A stretch of 13,114 nucleotides of DNA from a virus (Duplodnaviria > Heunggongvirae > Uroviricota > Caudoviricetes). Location: IMG/VR virus record IMGVR_UViG_3300030021_000027; one strand, given 5' to 3'. Positions 3,995 to 12,695 of this stretch are shown one piece after another. The first letter of the stretch is position 1. Each line of letters begins with the position of its first letter. The position numbers and the translations under genes are program-made. The notes beneath the pieces were generated by a model. It was not told the DNA's origin. It did no database searches and saw only the letters and a list, made by a program, of their open reading frames with translations.

Positions 3995-4100
3995 ATCCGT
4001 TGAAGCCTGCTTTTTTATACTAAGTTGGCATTATAAAAAAGCATTGCTTATCAATTTGTTGCAACGAACAGGTCACTATCAGTCAAAATAAAATCATTAT
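3995..4100. other. attL: Phage lambda attL (B-O-P'): bacterial B arm, 15-bp core at 4009-4023, P' arm with Int arm-type sites
   Basis: Core GCTTTTTTATACTAA at 4009-4023 is preceded by attB-type sequence (CCGTTGAAGCCTGC) and followed by lambda P' arm sequence (GTTGGCATTATAAAAAAGCATTGCTTATCAATTTGTTGCAACGAACAGGTCACTATCAGTCAAAATAAAATCATT) running into the int 3' end. Confidence 0.9.
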
Positions 4101-5167
4101 TTGATTTCAATTTTGTCCCACTCCCTGCCTCTGTCATCACGATACTGTGATGCCATGGTGTCCGACTTATGCCCGAGAAGATGTTGAGCAAACTTATCGC
4201 TTATCTGCTTCTCATAGAGTCTTGCAGACAAACTGCGCAACTCGTGAAAGGTAGGCGGATCCCCTTCGAAGGAAAGACCTGATGCTTTTCGTGCGCGCAT
4301 AAAATACCTTGATACTGTGCCGGATGAAAGCGGTTCGCGACGAGTAGATGCAATTATGGTTTCTCCGCCAAGAATCTCTTTGCATTTATCAAGTGTTTCC
4401 TTCATTGATATTCCGAGAGCATCAACATGCAATACTGTTGGGATGGCAATTTTTACGCCTGTTTTGCTTTGCTCGACATAAAGATATCCATCTACGATAT
4501 CAGACCACTTCATTTCGCATAAATCACCAACTCGTTGCCCGGTAACAACAGCCAGTTCCATTGCAAGTCTGAGCCAACATGGTAATGATTCTGCTGCTTG
4601 ATAAATTTTCAGGTATTCGTCAGCCGTAAGTCTTGATCTCCTTACCTCTGATTTTGCTGCGCGAGTGGCAGCGACAGGGTTTGTTGTTATATGGCCTTCA
4701 GCTATTGCCTCTCGGAATGCATCGCTCAGTGTTGATCTGATTAACTTGGCTGACGCCGCCTTGCCCTCGTCTATGTATCCATTGAGCATTGCCGCAATTT
4801 CTTTTGTGGTGATGTCTTCAAGTGGAGCATCAGGCAGACCCCTCCTTATTGCTTTAATTTTGCTCATGTAATTTATGAGTGTCTTCTGCTTGATTCCTCT
4901 GCTGGCCAGGATTTTTTCGTAGCGATCAAGCCATGAATGTAACGTAACGGAATTATCACTGTTGATTCTCGCTGTCAGAGGCTTGTGTTTGTGTCCTGAA
5001 AATAACTCAATGTTGGCCTGTATAGCTTCAGTGATTGCGATTCGCCTGTCTCTGCCTAATCCAAACTCTTTACCCGTCCTTGGGTCCCTGTAGCAGTAAT
5101 ATCCATTGTTTCTTATATAAAGGTTAGGGGGTAAATCCCGGCGCTCATGACTTCGCCTTCTTCCCAT
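4097..5167 (-). CDS. int: Lambda-type tyrosine integrase Int, 356 aa
   Basis: Translation MGRRRSHERRDLPPNLYIRNNGYYCYRDPRTGKEFGLGRDRR... matches phage lambda Int over its full length by my recall. It is adjacent to attL and transcribed toward it, as in a lambda prophage. Confidence 0.97.
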   Translation of the reverse strand: MGRRRSHERRDLPPNLYIRNNGYYCYRDPRTGKEFGLGRDRRIAITEAIQANIELFSGHKHKPLTARINSDNSVTLHSWLDRYEKILASRGIKQKTLINYMSKIKAIRRGLPDAPLEDITTKEIAAMLNGYIDEGKAASAKLIRSTLSDAFREAIAEGHITTNPVAATRAAKSEVRRSRLTADEYLKIYQAAESLPCWLRLAMELAVVTGQRVGDLCEMKWSDIVDGYLYVEQSKTGVKIAIPTVLHVDALGISMKETLDKCKEILGGETIIASTRREPLSSGTVSRYFMRARKASGLSFEGDPPTFHELRSLSARLYEKQISDKFAQHLLGHKSDTMASQYRDDRGREWDKIEIK

Positions 5168-5363
5168 TTCTGATCCTCTTCAAAAGGCTACCTGTTACTG
5201 GTCGATTTAAGTCAACCTTTACCGCTGATTCGTGGAACAGATACTCTCTTCCATCCTTAACCGGAGGAGGGAATATCCTGCACTCGCGTACCCATCGACG
5301 AACTGTTTCAAGGCTTCTTGGGCGTCGCTGGCGTGCGTTCCACTCCTGAAGTGTCAAGTACAT
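5145..5363 (-). CDS. xis: Lambda-type excisionase Xis, 72 aa
   Basis: Translation MYLTLQEWNARQRRPRSLETVRRWVRECRIFPPPVKDGREYLFHESAVKVDL... It overlaps the int start by 23 nt, as in lambda. Confidence 0.95.
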   Translation of the reverse strand: MYLTLQEWNARQRRPRSLETVRRWVRECRIFPPPVKDGREYLFHESAVKVDLNRPVTGSLLKRIRNGKKAKS

Positions 5364-5389
5364 CGCAAAGTCTCCGCAATTACACGCAA

Positions 5390-5412
5390 GAAAAAACCGC
5401 CATCAGGCGGCT
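5390..5412 (-). terminator. Candidate rho-independent terminator (minus strand) at the 3' end of the orf55-like gene
   Basis: Minus-strand GC stem (GCCGCC/GGCGGT, 4-nt loop) followed by a run of six T (plus-strand A-tract 5391-5396). Confidence 0.4.
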
Positions 5413-5570
5413 TGGTGTTCTTTCAGTTCTTCAATTCGAATATTGGTTACGTCTGCATGTGCTATCTGCGCCCATATCATCCAGTGGTTATAACAGTCGT
5501 TGATGTTCTCTGCTTCGATAACCCTGTTGAATGGCTCTCCATTCCATTCACCTGTGACTCGGAAGTGCAT
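5403..5570 (-). CDS. Small lambdoid early-left ORF (55 aa, lambda orf55-like); not in the supplied ORF track
   Basis: My own translation of the minus strand gives MHFRVTGEWNGEPFNRVIEAENINDCYNHWMIWAQIAHADVTNIRIEELKEHQAA. GGAG lies 7 nt upstream of the ATG at 5570. Position immediately upstream of xis matches lambda organisation. Confidence 0.55.
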   Translation of the reverse strand: MHFRVTGEWNGEPFNRVIEAENINDCYNHWMIWAQIAHADVTNIRIEELKEHQAA

Positions 5571-5583
5571 TTATCATCTCCAT

Positions 5584-5607
5584 AAAACAAAACTCGCCGT
5601 AGCGAGT
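5584..5607 (-). terminator. Candidate rho-independent terminator (minus strand) downstream of the 142-aa gene
   Basis: Inverted repeat ACTCGC-CGTA-GCGAGT followed on the minus strand by TTTGTTTT. Confidence 0.45.
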
Positions 5608-5653
5608 TCAGATATAATTTCCACCAAAGGCAGTAGTTGCTTGATGCTAAGAA

Positions 5654-6082
5654 TTATTCAATATCTATTCCTGTAATATCTTTTATCTTTTTCCTTGCAA
5701 AGCCTTTTGCTAGTGATTTTGAAACACTCATAAGTGTACTAATTCCCTCATCCTTAAAGTTTGTTTTTATAGCTTGCCAGACATCCTTTTGACGTAAGTC
5801 AGCAATAAAATCATGCCCTCTTGCTGTCAACCTCAGTGGTACTTCGATCCAACTATATCCAACACCTTCCCCTAACGCTTTGGACAATATATGACCGAAC
5901 CCAGGTTTTCCATCAACCCTGACTATTAATTCGTAGTCACATAATAATCGCATATGGAAAATAAAATCTTGGTCATATCTATTAAAGCCATTATCCTCTA
6001 GTTCACTAAGCATCGTGTCAGGGCCACGAGTTTTTTCGAATGCGATAAGTAGATCTTTTAGATATTGCTGGTCTAATTTCAT
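5654..6082 (-). CDS. Hypothetical protein, 142 aa (phage accessory gene, function unknown)
   Basis: ORF with strong RBS (GGAGG, 5-nt spacer) before the ATG at 6082. AT-rich relative to flanks. No family recognised by eye. Confidence 0.7.
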   Translation of the reverse strand: MKLDQQYLKDLLIAFEKTRGPDTMLSELEDNGFNRYDQDFIFHMRLLCDYELIVRVDGKPGFGHILSKALGEGVGYSWIEVPLRLTARGHDFIADLRQKDVWQAIKTNFKDEGISTLMSVSKSLAKGFARKKIKDITGIDIE

Positions 6083-6110
6083 TGCCGCCTCCGTGACATG
6101 TCACAGAGAT

Positions 6111-6449
6111 TTATATCATTAATTTTGTTTCGTGCCAGCCTTTGGTCACCCAGCATTGTGAGTCACCATTACACGGGCATGAATTAACAGGAACTCTCTC
6201 GCCGCACTTACCGCACCGTTTTCTGCTGATCGATTTTATACGCCAGCGCACACGTGCATCATCCTGGCGGCTCAGTAACGCGATGTACTCACCAAACTCG
6301 CAAGGCGCACGCCTGAAGCGACGCGTGGCACAGTTACGCTCCAGCATTTCAATTTCCTGAGCATCAAGTACAAGCTCCAGCTTACGCATACCGGATGATG
6401 CTTGCTTGGCTCTCTGATCGGCTTTGTGCTCTGTTGCTGATTTAGCCAT
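6111..6449 (-). CDS. Hypothetical protein, 112 aa, with a C-terminal Cys-rich (zinc-ribbon-like) region
   Basis: ORF with AGGAAA RBS about 7 nt upstream of the ATG at 6449. C-terminus reads RKRCGKCGERVPVNSCPCNGDSQCW. Ends 28 bp upstream of the 142-aa gene, suggesting an operon. Confidence 0.65.
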   Translation of the reverse strand: MAKSATEHKADQRAKQASSGMRKLELVLDAQEIEMLERNCATRRFRRAPCEFGEYIALLSRQDDARVRWRIKSISRKRCGKCGERVPVNSCPCNGDSQCWVTKGWHETKLMI

Positions 6450-6645
6450 TCTGCTTTTCCTGCATCAGGAGAAAGACAATCATGGCGGCGCGGATACTTC
6501 CGGTATCTTTTTACGCGATATTCCCCTTCAATGGCACATACAAGAAGAGAGCCATCAACAGGAGTGATTGAGGAATCGACAACCAGCAACGCTTAATTAT
6601 CTATAGTGTCGTATTTGCTTCATAAAATATGGCGAATAACACAAA

Positions 6646-6677
6646 GCCCGCAGCAGCTCATTGTGCGGGCTTTTCTT
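6646..6677. terminator. Candidate bidirectional rho-independent terminator separating the two-gene cassette from the secreted-protein gene
   Basis: 7-bp GC-rich stem (GCCCGCA/TGCGGGC) followed by TTTTCTT on the plus strand and a weaker T-rich tail on the minus strand. Confidence 0.5.
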
Positions 6678-6742
6678 ATACCTACTTCCTAGAGATAATT
6701 CTATGGAGGCATTAAATCAATACTGTCATTGGTAATATCATA

Positions 6743-7357
6743 TTATCTAAAAGTCTTTCCACTTTTAACATCTAGGTATATTCTGTTCGACAACGTCATT
6801 CCTCCGCAATATGTGAAATAGATGTTTTCACCCTTATTGCTTGATGCCATCCACCCTCCGATTTCCTTAAAATCGCTTTCCGTGCAGACCCCTTCATTTA
6901 TTAACTTCCTAGCTGCCGAAGAAAACTCTTTTTTGTATATACGGTAGTCATCAGATCCTTTGATTAAAGTATCATCTCCGCTCGCATTTTCAGCAGGATC
7001 TGATGGCCTTTCACTGCTAAGATCACTAAGTTTAACCCATTCTGAAAACTTGCCATTAACGATTCCATTTTTTCTTGTGCAGGATTTATTACCTTCTTTA
7101 ATATATTCGCTTTCCCCTCCAACACATGAGGCTGAATATGGCTCAGTTATACGAACCCATTCACCTTTTTTTTCTAGAAAATCTACGCCTTCCCTGAAAA
7201 ATAGTTTCCCAGCCACTCCACATTTACTTGAAGGGCAGGTATGTCTTTCCGTTTGATCAACAACAACCCATAGTTTTGATTCATTTTTTGCCATTGCCGA
7301 TGGTATTTGAGATGAGACAATTAACGTAAGCCCTAAAATTAGTATTGATTTTTTCAT
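6743..7357 (-). CDS. Secreted Cys-rich hypothetical protein, 204 aa (signal peptide, probable SPase I site after AMA)
   Basis: N-terminus MKKSILILGLTLIVSSQIPSAMA-KNES is a typical Sec signal peptide with no lipobox. Six Cys in the mature part. AAGGAA RBS before the ATG. Very AT-rich gene with a terminator downstream. Confidence 0.75.
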   Translation of the reverse strand: MKKSILILGLTLIVSSQIPSAMAKNESKLWVVVDQTERHTCPSSKCGVAGKLFFREGVDFLEKKGEWVRITEPYSASCVGGESEYIKEGNKSCTRKNGIVNGKFSEWVKLSDLSSERPSDPAENASGDDTLIKGSDDYRIYKKEFSSAARKLINEGVCTESDFKEIGGWMASSNKGENIYFTYCGGMTLSNRIYLDVKSGKTFR

Positions 7358-7496
7358 TGTAATTTCCTTTTACTTTTTACAAAGCGTTTAATCATGGCTG
7401 ATTATCTCTAAGTGTAGTAACAGCCTTGTGCGAAACATGTTACCAAATCGCCATTTCAGTGTATCCGCAGTTAGGCTGCCACTTCAAGGATTCCTA

Positions 7497-7907
7497 ATTA
7501 CATGGTACGTAAGCGTAAAATCCCGTTGGTTGGCGGGTAATAACTCTGATCAAATCTCCCTTGTCTTTTGCTCTTACGTATGCAGCTCTTGTGTATTCAA
7601 CCCAGGCCTCCAGTTCAGCAATACGCTTACTTCCATCCGAGATAACACCTTCTACTCACGCTGCTCGTTGAGTTTTGATTTTTGCTGTCTCCAGCTCAAC
7701 ACGCAGTTTCCCCACCGTTAGCGCAATATCCTCGTTCTCCTGGTCGCGGCGTTTGATGTATTGCTGGTTTCTTTCCCGTTCATCCAGCAGTGTCAGCACA
7801 ATCGATGGTGTTACCAGCTCATGGAAAAGGTCCGCGTCAAATCCCCAGTTGTCAGGCATTGCCTGCTCTGCCGCTTCACGCAGTGCCTGAGAGTGAATTA
7901 CGCTCAC
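7497..7907 (-). pseudogene. Early-left hypothetical gene interrupted by an in-frame TGA (83 codons, TGA at 7656-7658, then 53 in-frame codons)
   Basis: The 83-aa ORF (7656-7907) ends at TGA. The same frame continues for 53 codons (VEGVISDGSKRIAELEAWVEYTRAAYVRAKDKGDLIRVITRQPTGFYAYVPCN) with no ATG/GTG/TTG start codon of its own, ending at TAG 7494-7496. Confidence 0.5.
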
Positions 7908-8125
7908 TTCGAACCTCTCTGTTTACTGATAAGCTCCAGATCTTCCTGGCAACTTGCACAAGTCCGACAACCCTGAACGGCCAGGCGTCTTAGCTCATCT
8001 ATGGGATCGCCACACTCACAACAATGAGTGGCAGATACAGCCTGGTGGTTCAGGCGGCGCATTTTTATTGCTGTGTTGCGCTGTAATTCTTCAATTTCTG
8101 ATGCTGAATCAATGATGTCTGCCAT
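7904..8125 (-). CDS. TraR/DksA-family C4 zinc-finger protein, 73 aa (lambda Orf73-like)
   Basis: Translation has the CxxC-x17-CxxC motif (CCECGDPIDELRRLAVQGCRTCASC) and the size typical of TraR-like phage proteins. Its stop overlaps the next gene's start (ATGA). Confidence 0.85.
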   Translation of the reverse strand: MADIIDSASEIEELQRNTAIKMRRLNHQAVSATHCCECGDPIDELRRLAVQGCRTCASCQEDLELISKQRGSK

Positions 8126-8178
8126 CTTCCATTAATCCCTGAATTGTTGGTTAATACGCTTGGGGGTAAATGCGAGCA

Positions 8179-8201
8179 ATAAAAAAGGAGCCTGTAGCTC
8201 C
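8179..8201 (-). terminator. Weak candidate terminator (minus strand) between the orf61-like and TraR-like genes
   Basis: Short GGAGC/GCTCC stem followed by a run of six T on the minus strand. Confidence 0.3.
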
Positions 8202-8223
8202 CTGATAATTTTGCTTTTCATGT

Positions 8224-8439
8224 TCATCGTTCCTTAAAGACGCCGTTTAACATGCCGATTGCCAGGCTTAAATGAGTCGGTGTGAATCCCATCAGCGTTA
8301 CCGTTTCGCGGTGCTTCTTCAGTACGCTACGGCAAATGTCATCGACGTTTTTATCCGGAAACTGCTGTCTGGCTTTTTTGATTTCAGAATTAGCCTGACG
8401 GGCAATGCTGCGAAGGGCGTTTTCTTGCTGAGGTGTCAT
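8224..8439 (-). CDS. Lambdoid early-left small ORF (orf61-like), 71 aa from ATG 8439; the track ORF extends to 8505
   Basis: Protein-like translation MTPQQENALRSIARQANSEIKKARQQFPDKNVDDICRSVLKKHRETVTLMGFTPTHLSLAIGMLNGVFKER, directly downstream of orf63 as in lambda. The N-terminal extension from 8505 looks non-coding. Start choice is uncertain. Confidence 0.6.
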   Translation of the reverse strand: MTPQQENALRSIARQANSEIKKARQQFPDKNVDDICRSVLKKHRETVTLMGFTPTHLSLAIGMLNGVFKER

Positions 8440-8515
8440 TGAACAAGCCCCATGTCGGCAAGCATAAGCACACAGAATATGAAGCCCGCTGCCAGAAAAA
8501 TGCATTCAGTGGTTG

Positions 8516-8707
8516 TCATACCTGGTCTCTCTCATCTGCTTCTGCTTTCGCCACCATCATTTCCAGCTTTTGTGAAAGGGATGCGGCTAACGTATGAAAT
8601 TCTTCGTCTGTTTCTACTGGTATTGGCACAAACCTGACTCCAATTTGAGCGAGGCTATGTGCCATCTCGATACACGTTCTTAACTCAACAGGAGATGCTT
8701 TGTGCAT
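8516..8707 (-). CDS. Lambda orf63-like protein, 63 aa
   Basis: Translation MHKASPVELRTCIEMAHSLAQIGVRFVPIPVETDEEFHTLAASLSQKLEMMVAKAEADERDQV, recognised as the lambda early-left orf63 product. G-rich RBS upstream. Confidence 0.85.
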   Translation of the reverse strand: MHKASPVELRTCIEMAHSLAQIGVRFVPIPVETDEEFHTLAASLSQKLEMMVAKAEADERDQV

Positions 8708-8817
8708 ACAGCCCCCCGTTTATTATTTATCTCCTCAGCCAGCCGCTGTGCTTTCAGGGGATTTCTGATAACAGAAAGGCCGGGAAATATCTGGCTGAAA
8801 GAGGGGGTTATTAAGGC

Positions 8818-9180
8818 GTGAATACCTACAGCATCACATTACCCTGGCCTCCGAGCAATAATCGCTATTACCGCCATAATCGCGGGCGCACGCACGTCAG
8901 CGCAGAGGGGCAGGCATACCGCGATAACGTCGCCCGAATCATTAAAAACGCAATGCTGGATATCGGCCTGACTATGCCTGTGAAAATCCGCATTGAGTGC
9001 CACATGCCGGATCGCCGTCGCCGTGACCTGGATAATCTGCAAAAAGCCGCTTTTGACGCACTCACTAAAGCAGGTTTCTGGCTGGATGATGCTCAGGTCG
9101 TTGATTACCGCGTTGTGAAGATGCCTGTTACCAAAGGTGGGAGGCTGGAACTGACCATCACCGAAATGGGGAATGAATGA
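8818..9180 (+). CDS. rusA: Holliday-junction resolvase RusA (crossover junction endodeoxyribonuclease), 120 aa, GTG start
   Basis: Translation [47 protein letters not shown]... is near-identical to E. coli DLP12 RusA by my recall. GAGGGGG RBS upstream. Confidence 0.95.
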
Positions 9181-9935: not shown

Positions 9936-10460
9936 TTATTGTTTAACCCATAATAATTCATTGACATTGAATCCCAACTTTTGAGCGGTTCGCACATAGT
10001 CTGCTTTTACTTTATCTGGAATAGTTGGGGTCCTTGCCAGAATCCATAGGTATTCTCTGTTCGGACCACTGACAAGAGCATACTTATACTCATCATCCAG
10101 TTTGATTACATTATAGCCACCATAGAAGGGGCCAAAAAACGAAACCTTCAATGCTGCAGTTTTAGTATCTCCAGTAAAGTATGCTTTACCTTCGCTCTCG
10201 CTCCATTTATTTTTCGTTGGATCGTATCCACGGTTAAGTACACGAATCCCTCCGTCGTTCCGTTTTCCATAAGTAGCGCTGACCTGTTCCAGACCACGTT
10301 CGAACCGGTTCTCGAGGCGAGCTATTTCATACCATTTTCCGAGGTAGCGGTTGGCGTCAAAATTTGTAATCGGCTGCACACCTTTAGGTGGTGTCGGGGC
10401 CTTACATGCTATAAGAGTGAAAGAGAGTGCAATGCCAGTCAACACAGGCCATAACTTCAT
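9936..10460 (-). CDS. Bacterial lipocalin Blc-like outer-membrane lipoprotein, 174 aa
   Basis: Lipoprotein signal MKLWPVLTGIALSFTLIAC (lipobox LIAC). Mature region (FDANRYLGKWYEIARLENRFERGLEQVSATY...KAYFTG...ALKVSFFGPFYGGYNVI...EYLWILARTP) is clearly homologous to E. coli Blc but divergent. Confidence 0.85.
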   Translation of the reverse strand: MKLWPVLTGIALSFTLIACKAPTPPKGVQPITNFDANRYLGKWYEIARLENRFERGLEQVSATYGKRNDGGIRVLNRGYDPTKNKWSESEGKAYFTGDTKTAALKVSFFGPFYGGYNVIKLDDEYKYALVSGPNREYLWILARTPTIPDKVKADYVRTAQKLGFNVNELLWVKQ

Positions 10461-10652
10461 AATAAATCCTGTACTTTTGATAGTTGAGAGTAAGTATGAA
10501 AGATAGATGATTACGACCGATCACTTAAAGAACTTTCATACTATATTAGGAATAGTCCATAACAGAAAAATTGTCAGTGATGACGCCAGAAAGGCAATTT
10601 ATTCCGTGCACTACACAGTTTATGTGTTAATGAATTAGTCAAGGGGGAGAAT

Positions 10653-11612
10653 ATGATAAAAAAACCTGTGATTGGAATCAGCGGTTGTTTGGCCGGTTCT
10701 GCTGTTCGTTTTGATGGTGGTCACAAAAGAGCTGACTTTTTAATGGACAAATTAGTGGAATGGGTAACATTCAGACCAGTATGTCCGGAAATGGCTATAG
10801 GGCTGCCAGTTCCGCGTCCTGCTCTACGTCTTGTGCGCTCGACGCAAGGAAATATACGGATGTGTTTCAGCCACGACCAGAATGAGGATGTGACAGAGAG
10901 AATGACAGAGTTTAGTCGTTCTTATATGGACAAATTAAAGGATGTATCGGGGTTTGTGGTTTGTGCTAAATCTCCCAGCTGTGGCATGGAGCGCGTGCGT
11001 GTCTATGATGAAAATGGTAATCGAGGTCGTAAAGATGGAGTGGGACTATTTACGAGCACTTTGATGGAAAAGTTTTCCTGGCTACCGGTTGAAGAGGATG
11101 GGCGATTACATGATCCAGTGCTTCGTGAGAATTTTGTTGAAAGAGTTTTTGCTTTGCATGAGCTCAATCACCTTTACAAGGAGAAATTATCAAGAAGAGA
11201 GTTATTAGCTTTTCATAGTCGTTATAAGCTTCAGTTGTTGGCGCATAGTCAGGCAGGCTATAAAGATATGGGACCATTTGTGGCTGCAATACACGAGTGG
11301 GCGGACCTTGAATCATACTTTGAGGTGTATCGTGATAAGCTGATGGCGATTCTCAGAAAACCTGCATCACGTAAAAATCACACGAATGTGCTGATGCATA
11401 TACAGGGGTATTTTAGTAACTACTTAAGTACACGCCAGCGTAAAGAGTTGAGCGAGGTTATACTTAACTATCGTTCTGGCACATTACCTCTTCTTGCGCC
11501 GTTGACTCTGCTGAAGCATTATCTGGGTGAGTATCCTAATGATTACTTGCTTACACAGAATTACTTCGATCCCTATCCGGACGAACTGGCTCTAAGACTG
11601 ATGGTAAATTAA
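10653..11612 (+). CDS. DUF523 (TudS-like thiouracil desulfidase fold) / DUF1722 (YbgA-like) fusion protein, 319 aa
   Basis: N-terminus MIKKPVIGISGCLAGSAVRFDGGHKR with conserved Cys residues typical of DUF523. The C-terminal half resembles YbgA-type DUF1722. Strong RBS AAGGGGGAG. Family assignment is from memory, not a search. Confidence 0.8.
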   Translation: MIKKPVIGISGCLAGSAVRFDGGHKRADFLMDKLVEWVTFRPVCPEMAIGLPVPRPALRLVRSTQGNIRMCFSHDQNEDVTERMTEFSRSYMDKLKDVSGFVVCAKSPSCGMERVRVYDENGNRGRKDGVGLFTSTLMEKFSWLPVEEDGRLHDPVLRENFVERVFALHELNHLYKEKLSRRELLAFHSRYKLQLLAHSQAGYKDMGPFVAAIHEWADLESYFEVYRDKLMAILRKPASRKNHTNVLMHIQGYFSNYLSTRQRKELSEVILNYRSGTLPLLAPLTLLKHYLGEYPNDYLLTQNYFDPYPDELALRLMVN

Positions 11613-11963
11613 TTGTATGCGATATCATCCAAAAGGATGAGTTCCTGCATGCAGGATATTTACAATCGTAAAAACTACACTATGATACCCAGAGTGTCAG
11701 TTTGTATAAAAACTCTGTTTACGCTGAAGAAACAATTGAGATGCAACTTAAAGTTGGTAAACATGCCAGTCAAAATATATAATATTATGATTCCACGCAG
11801 CTATATATAATATAACGGATTGGTTTAATAATTTGTCTTTGTGAGTTAAATACATAATTTTATACTTGTGATGCAATGAAATTTTCCTTATTGTTGAACT
11901 GGCGAATATTGATTTTCCACCTATACTTACCTGGTGTAACCCCAATGATATCAGGTGGATAAT

Positions 11964-12695
11964 ATGCCATACATATGTTCTATCATTTTGGTGTTGAACT
12001 CGTTTGATGTCCGAATTGGTAAAGAAGATATTTTGTTTAAAAAAGGAAGTGCTGTTCTCATTGATTACAATTTAAAAGATTTTTTTTCATCAAATATAGA
12101 TCATGTAATGATCGTAGATGTTGAAGAGAAAACAGTTAATGATTTCTTTAAAAGCAACACACTCTCACCTTTTTCTGTAAGAAGGTTTTATCCGGCATAC
12201 TTGATGGTGGAATGTGAAGATTTTTCATTGTTAAAGAACTTGATTGCATGCTTGAATTGTGATGGCAGAACTGTGGATTTTGTTAGAAATCAAATATCAC
12301 TTGCATGTCTTGCTATCTTATCTTCAGAGAAAATAGTGCAAAGTTTTTTATTTGGATGTCTTAATAGTTTAGGAAGTAAAGTTAAGGCTATTATTCACAC
12401 GGATATATCTGCAGCATGGAGACTTTGTGATATATCTTCAAGACTGTATCTGAGTGAAAGTCTGTTAAAAAGAAAATTAAAGCACGAAGGCTTATCATTT
12501 AGTAAGTTAATTCTTGAAGAGCGAATGGTGATGGCGGAAAGGTTATTAAGCTACAATTTATATTCTGTTGGAAAAGTTGCTGAGATATGCGGTTATGAAA
12601 ACACGTCATATTTTGTAAGTGTTTTCAGAAGGTATTTTGGTGTTCCTCCCCATCAATATTCATCAAGATTTTTTTTAGAAAAAGACATGATGTAA
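11964..12695 (+). CDS. AraC-family transcriptional regulator, AppY/EnvY-like, about 243 aa (the track ORF starts at GTG 11955)
   Basis: N-terminus MPYICSIILVLNSFDV resembles AppY (MDYVCSVVFICQSFDL). C-terminal AraC-type helix-turn-helix (ICGYENTSYFVSVFRRYFGVPPHQY). AGGTGG RBS upstream. Preceded by a 340-bp extremely AT-rich region. Confidence 0.85.
   Translation: MPYICSIILVLNSFDVRIGKEDILFKKGSAVLIDYNLKDFFSSNIDHVMIVDVEEKTVNDFFKSNTLSPFSVRRFYPAYLMVECEDFSLLKNLIACLNCDGRTVDFVRNQISLACLAILSSEKIVQSFLFGCLNSLGSKVKAIIHTDISAAWRLCDISSRLYLSESLLKRKLKHEGLSFSKLILEERMVMAERLLSYNLYSVGKVAEICGYENTSYFVSVFRRYFGVPPHQYSSRFFLEKDMM

Follow-up and report, generated by a model that had tools for sequence, protein, structure and literature searches.

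In this study we establish that an AT-rich gene for a 204-aa protein, carried by a lambda-like prophage of Escherichia coli, is a well-supported moron, and that its product joins an SH3b (bacterial SH3) domain, which makes up the N-terminal half, to a conserved C-terminal half that is described in no database. On balance, we consider it probable that the product is a periplasmic, peptidoglycan-associated, non-enzymatic binding protein, carried as an autonomous moron. The window (the whole stretch of DNA analysed, 13,114 nt) begins in the E. coli chromosome (ybhJ, ybhC) and continues into the prophage, which is inserted at the lambda attachment site (attB-lambda).

The coding sequence (6743..7357, minus strand, stop included) starts with ATG, is preceded by the Shine–Dalgarno sequence AGGA (7365..7368, minus strand, read directly 8–11 nt upstream of the ATG) and encodes a protein identical to RefSeq WP_024207669, a ‘hypothetical protein’. 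The original prediction had left the product unrecognized, and so it proved: the single PHROG match is PHROG 8310, a family of unknown function aligned over its full length (residues 1–204 against profile positions 1–204, E 2.7e-136), NCBIfam and PADLOC gave no match, and a PDB sequence search returned a chance match only (E 1.3). Homology to structural phage proteins was looked for and none was found, and literature searches with the accession numbers, the PHROG id and the name of phage Chlobot, as well as on the SH3b/prophage/exclusion topic, yielded nothing on any family member. As predicted, the GC content of the gene (37.9 %, GC3 30 %) lies under that of int, xis, orf112, the ea22 remnant and rusA (45–53 %). 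The gene is real and under purifying selection, with a dN/dS of 0.08 between the E. coli copy and a copy on an Escherichia fergusonii phage-plasmid (84.6 % identical) and of 0.04 for a Citrobacter/Pseudomonas pair of family genes. Of 5426 complete E. coli genomes, 132 (2.4 %), from all kinds of sources, carry it, always annotated as ‘hypothetical protein’; one carrier is E. coli ATCC 8739, with a 98.2 % allele. The gene is intact in no fewer than about 126 of these carriers, and IS1 interrupts it in two genomes (E. coli PSS-16, locus L144 2198–2895, and one further). In the window the gene is intact, whereas its neighbours UmuD-like, ea22 and DUF1317 are remnants.

The prophage genes run from int (4097–5167) and xis (5145–5363), both on the minus strand, through a small ORF, a DUF2513 gene, orf112, a UmuD-like remnant and the 204-aa gene to the ea22 remnant; beyond this lie a DksA/TraR-like gene, an orf61-like gene and DUF1382, followed by a jump to rusA, Q, three cargo genes and a holin gene. 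The deletion junction lies at 8707–8818. With lambda homology ending in the DUF1317 remnant (at 8789) and rusA beginning at 8818, the prophage lacks exo-bet-gam, N, cI, cro, O, P, the immunity region and most of nin and is defective; phage Chlobot is an intact relative with 100 % identity to window positions 5200–8789. Lambda homology also stops at 5618 and resumes at 7609, so that a 2-kb mosaic cargo block (5619..7608, minus strand), containing the DUF2513 gene (5654–6082, minus strand, 36 % GC), orf112, the UmuD-like remnant (6272–6589, minus strand) and the 204-aa gene, stands in place of ea8.5 together with the 3′ portion of ea22 next to it.

Several further features of the window were recorded. 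The orf112 product (6111–6449, minus strand) has a Cys-rich C-terminal end (CGKCGERVPVNSCPCNGDSQC) resembling a small zinc-binding motif; orf112 matched no family, and the Chlobot annotation covers just part of it, as ‘transcriptional regulator’. A second cargo cluster (9936–12695), located between Q and holin, encodes a Blc-like outer-membrane lipocalin lipoprotein (9936–10460, minus strand), a YbgA-like protein (10653–11612, plus strand) and a YdeO/AraC-like regulator (11955–12695, plus strand, 31.8 % GC), and in strain PK8566 an IS2 lies between the first two of these genes. At the contig end, positions 1–315 look like a fold-back with arms (1–119 and 197–315) that are 97 % complementary, the first approximately 200 bases being the reverse complement of the next bases; the reference genome has the forward copy only, and the fold-back is probably an assembly artefact. 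Its turn-around falls within an ERIC-like dispersed repeat of the ybhI–ybhJ spacer, found in a median of six places per E. coli genome. The window contains no Rfam family and no tRNA, and around the 204-aa gene there are neither inverted repeats nor meaningful direct repeats.

The designation of the gene as a moron, which formed part of the original prediction, held up well, given its absence from the corresponding slot of lambda and of phage ev099, its deviant composition and the sharing of a discrete unit with an unrelated element. In particular, the coding sequence plus 142 bp upstream (6741..7499, minus strand) is the only stretch in common with the E. fergusonii phage-plasmid (84.6 % nucleotide identity by blastn). 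The slot between xis and ea22 holds ea8.5 in lambda and, in ev099, a gene for a 232-aa exported protein of the ‘lysozyme inhibitor LprI family’ (L143 1008–1706), and is thus a hot spot of exchangeable cargo. The 204-aa gene or a relative was also found on a ColE1-type plasmid, an ICE and a Ti-type plasmid; the 99 %-identical plasmid copy under study is a segment of the same prophage that has been transplanted. Family genes adjoin an integrase in Pseudomonas islands, lie between lysis genes and terminase or between a tail protein and endolysin in Pseudomonas-like prophages, and, in alphaproteobacterial phages, occupy the opposite strand between head genes. UmuD/S24-like or Y-family-polymerase genes were seen close to family members in three mobile elements, in a different order each time: the prophage of the window and Chlobot (6272–6589, minus strand), the E. 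fergusonii phage-plasmid (L007 2359–2751) and a Pseudomonas-like prophage (L134 2144–3842).

The predicted downstream terminator has its counterpart in a terminator-like, GC-rich hairpin (6643–6674) followed by the U-rich tail UUUGUGUUAUU, together spanning 6635..6674 on the minus strand approximately 70 nt past the stop codon; the 71-nt stretch has a folding energy of −22 kcal/mol (z = −2.2), and the element reads as a terminator on the plus strand too. Upstream, our own position weight matrix scan picked out a candidate σ70 promoter (7458..7487, minus strand) consisting of TTGAAG (7487–7482), an 18-nt spacer and TACACT (7463–7458), which would give a leader of about 93 nt. It is the sole σ70-like site in the approximately 300-bp upstream spacer, and it is identical in the E. 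fergusonii copy and lies 12 bp inside the boundary of the shared unit. Considering that its match is weak (8 of 12 positions) and that the site was not listed by a consensus promoter scan, we treat it as a putative promoter. Upstream palindromes were considered as operator sites and dropped, since their register differs between E. coli and E. fergusonii. Given the weak putative promoter, and an orientation that in intact phages matches that of the pL operon, expression in the lysogen is hypothetical.

The product is predicted to be exported by Sec and processed by signal peptidase I, in line with the signal peptide without a lipobox that had been proposed. Residues 1–23 (MKKSILILGLTLIVSSQIPSAMA; 7289..7357, minus strand) read by inspection as a leader MKK / SILILGLTLIVSS / QIPSAMA|KNE with n-, h- and c-regions and an A-x-A motif at −3/−1, cleavage being predicted after A-M-A, and hydropathy reaches a maximum of 2.8 over 11 residues. 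There is no lipobox, since residues 1–40 are free of Cys and the first Cys is residue 41. The AlphaFold2 (AF2) pLDDT is below 50 for residues 1–9 and 19–23, averages approximately 50 for residues 11–20 and exceeds 95 thereafter, which is the pattern expected of a cleaved leader. Moreover, homologues have one of three elements at this position, namely an SPI-type leader with A-x-A, a lipobox, or a TM anchor joined to a cytoplasmic zinc ribbon, which argues that the family as a whole is extracytoplasmic.

The six cysteines placed in the mature part by the original prediction are indeed there (residues 41, 46, 78, 93, 158 and 184) and are conserved across the family. In an alignment of 40 homologues, C158 and C184 are invariant, including in proteins made of the C-terminal domain alone, while C41, C46, C78 and C93 are each present in at least 90 % of the sequences and are lost together with residues 78–97 in the most distant members; 16 columns are invariant across phyla. 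The search for remote homology and structure that had been proposed succeeded for one half of the protein: the N-terminal half is an SH3b domain (residues ~28–115; 7013..7276, minus strand) with a CxxxxC motif (C41, C46) and a Cys-bounded insertion (C78…C93), while the C-terminal half matched no described family. The Pfam SH3_3 model (PF08239) scores the protein itself at 16.2 bits (E 0.013), under the gathering cut-off of 27 bits; it was found in 36 of 40 members at E ≤ 0.1, and some relatives score above the cut-off (e.g. P0168, 54 bits). The protein has the SH3b β-barrel fold. SH3b domains are not all peptidoglycan binders.

The C-terminal domain (residues ~125–204; 6746..6985, minus strand) comprises approximately 80 residues in an α+β arrangement of a helix and four strands, with the motifs SDDY, GGW, YFTYCGG and NRIYL and the invariant C158 and C184. 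A profile of this domain, searched against 1.84 billion representatives (E ≤ 0.001), matched approximately 530 clusters at 50 % identity. Family members were found in Pseudomonas, Aeromonas, Vibrio, Shewanella, Marinobacter, Rhodobacteraceae, Rhizobiales, Burkholderiales and Sulfurimonas, with a few from Acidobacteriota and Vampirovibrionales; environmental and marine bacteria and lipoprotein or TM-anchored forms dominate. In all proteins examined except one the domain is C-terminal, and it sits behind a signal peptide, a lipobox or a membrane anchor, often together with SH3b. When 70 longer members were scanned, SH3_3 was found in 32, an N-terminal zinc ribbon with a membrane helix in several, and ankyrin repeats, IalB, HIRAN and a T4 Imm-type membrane domain in single fusions, and none of the 70 contained an enzyme domain. 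Since many members of about 100 aa consist of a signal peptide and this domain only, we take it to be the functional core and the N-terminal parts to be anchors. Its best structural match, a weak one, is the peptidoglycan-binding extracellular subdomain 2 of Streptococcus pneumoniae MapZ (PDB 2NDA), with which it shares the order short helix, long helix, four antiparallel strands, and a C-terminal, extracytoplasmic position; no similarity to hydrolase folds was found. Matches of the profile to de novo designed TIM barrels in the PDB were spurious, their scores being the sum of four weak repeats, each with an i-Evalue above 18.

No conserved partner gene emerged from an all-against-all BLAST of 999 ORFs at 77 genomic loci, synteny being lineage-local only (Vibrio and three Pseudomonas islands), and the neighbours in the Pseudomonas islands matched nothing in PADLOC or NCBIfam. 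In Vibrio, Rhodobacteraceae and Rhizobiales many family genes lie on the chromosome; one chromosomal member stands between metW and pheT. In Marinobacter litoralis (locus L151 5401–5763) a stand-alone gene for the C-terminal domain has a DUF2513 gene immediately downstream; co-occurrence with DUF2513, with two cases among about 80 contexts, was rejected as probably coincidental. In two prophage-like regions of the Agrobacterium type (L145 4441–5318; L148 4761–5309) a stand-alone secreted C-terminal-domain gene (102–105 aa) overlaps the stop of a gene for a 78-aa two-helix membrane protein, preceded in L145 by a TM2-domain gene, and these pairings may represent a small envelope operon.

Taken together, we propose that the 204-aa gene would serve as an autonomous cargo unit in the xis–ea22 slot of a now defective lambda-like prophage. 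Its product would be exported by Sec, the leader being cut after Ala23, to yield a mature protein of 20 kDa with probably three disulfides, C158–C184 in the C-terminal domain and, most simply, C41–C46 and C78–C93 in SH3b. The mature protein would then be a two-module binder, with an SH3b of the peptidoglycan-anchoring kind followed by an 80-residue C-terminal domain able to act alone. Most likely it would reside at the peptidoglycan of the host cell, the C-terminal domain binding a second envelope ligand (glycan or protein), and may thereby confer an envelope-level advantage on the carrying element or the host. We infer the binding to peptidoglycan from the SH3b fold and the weak resemblance to MapZ.

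The label of lysogenic-conversion or superinfection-exclusion factor that the gene was originally given is not supported, as no known exclusion or defence family was matched and the family is not phage-specific. Searches of PADLOC, Pfam, NCBIfam and PHROG gave no match to such families (T4 Imm/Sp, SieA/SieB, Cor, Llp and the PADLOC systems), and no sequence or fold homology to the lysozyme inhibitors Ivy, MliC/PliC, PliG and LprI/DUF1311 was detected. Exclusion or protection of the envelope is nevertheless a plausible, if hypothetical, function, considering the repeated capture of the family by mobile elements, the analogous cargo of ev099, the one fusion to an Imm-type domain and the Agrobacterium-type coupling to a membrane protein. 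We therefore consider, as a possibility that is on the unlikely side, a superinfection-exclusion or envelope-defence factor that coats peptidoglycan or binds and inhibits incoming muralytic enzymes and so would keep competitors from entering, as T4 Sp does for the gp5 lysozyme, its targets being phage virion lysins, conjugative transglycosylases, or T6SS or host lysozymes; this would refine rather than contradict the preferred reading of a peptidoglycan-associated binder. Conversely, with so many ordinary chromosomal genes in the family, the protein may serve a housekeeping purpose and not one specific to the element.

The remaining alternatives fare worse. A new small enzyme in the C-terminal domain, with peptidoglycan or another envelope polymer as substrate and targeting by SH3b as in NlpC/P60 enzymes and lysostaphin, appears improbable: SH3b is the usual companion of cell-wall hydrolases and the polar residues S135, D136, D137, S172, N191 and Y194 are nearly invariant, but the domain is only ~80 residues long, its two invariant Cys look structural, no hydrolase fold is resembled and every partner domain is a module for binding or anchoring. 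An accessory to lysis or virion release, i.e. a free cell-wall-binding module tuning the phage's own endolysin or spanin in the lytic cycle, would fit the two Pseudomonas-like prophages in which the family gene adjoins the lysis cassette, and the co-orientation of the lambdoid copy with the pL early operon; yet the gene lies far from lysis genes in the E. coli and alphaproteobacterial phages, occurs on plasmids, ICEs and chromosomes devoid of them, and has been kept intact in a prophage without the early operon control region, which makes this role very unlikely. We give equally little credence to a factor released beyond the periplasm, an adhesin or host-interaction protein bringing about classical lysogenic conversion of colonization or virulence. 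A signal peptide on AT-rich, horizontally acquired DNA and the rare fusion to IalB, from an invasion-associated locus, point that way, whereas no secretion-system neighbour or signal was found, the family belongs mostly to environmental and marine bacteria in lipoprotein or TM-anchored forms, and the E. coli carriers come from all sources. Least credible of all is a functionless hitch-hiking ORF, which the invariable ‘hypothetical’ annotation and the two IS1 disruptions might suggest. Selection and conservation already contradict this reading, namely the dN/dS values of both pairs, the six conserved Cys and 16 invariant columns, the confident predicted fold and the intact state of the gene in nearly all carriers beside pseudogene neighbours.

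One of the chief ways in which phages alter host envelopes (exclusion, serum resistance, colonization) is through secreted prophage cargo, and the present family, of ~530 clusters, has no Pfam model, solved structure or literature, yet is under strong purifying selection and has been picked up repeatedly by unrelated phages, phage-plasmids, ICEs and plasmids. Defining the ligand of the C-terminal domain would allow hundreds of ‘hypothetical’ genes to be annotated and could reveal a new peptidoglycan-associated module or a new single-gene exclusion system; should the protein be merely another wall-binding protein, the result would be an ordinary one. A bolder idea, which we hold to be rather doubtful, is that the ‘YFTYCGG’ domain founds a new periplasmic binding or inhibitor family, tethered by SH3b or to the membrane, that blocks muralytic enzymes or rival phages, plasmids and T6SS effectors. 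If true, this would amount to one-protein, envelope-level exclusion spread by mobile elements of Proteobacteria and absent from current defence catalogues.

Finally, the gene may be set beside known systems. Lambdoid morons, in the sense of Hendrix and Juhala, include lambda lom and bor and cargo genes of HK97 and 933W. Like these, the 204-aa gene is present or absent between otherwise collinear phages, deviates in GC content, encodes a predicted envelope protein and is flanked by a promoter-like site and a terminator-like hairpin; unlike the morons of the late region, it occupies the early-left slot between xis and ea22, co-oriented with pL. T4 Sp, T5 Llp, φ80/N15 Cor, Ivy, MliC/PliC and LprI are likewise small, exported, often disulfide-bonded, and phage-encoded or carried on acquired DNA, although the 204-aa protein resembles none of them in sequence or fold. 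In contrast to the cell-wall-binding SH3b (SH3_3) domains of lysostaphin, phage endolysins and NlpC/P60 peptidases, its SH3b has no attached catalytic domain, possesses two pairs of Cys as well as a Cys-bounded insertion of 20 residues, would act in the Gram-negative periplasm and scores under the Pfam cut-off. The gene thus belongs to a known kind, the phage moron for an exported envelope protein, and what is new is the C-terminal domain that stands beside the known SH3b.
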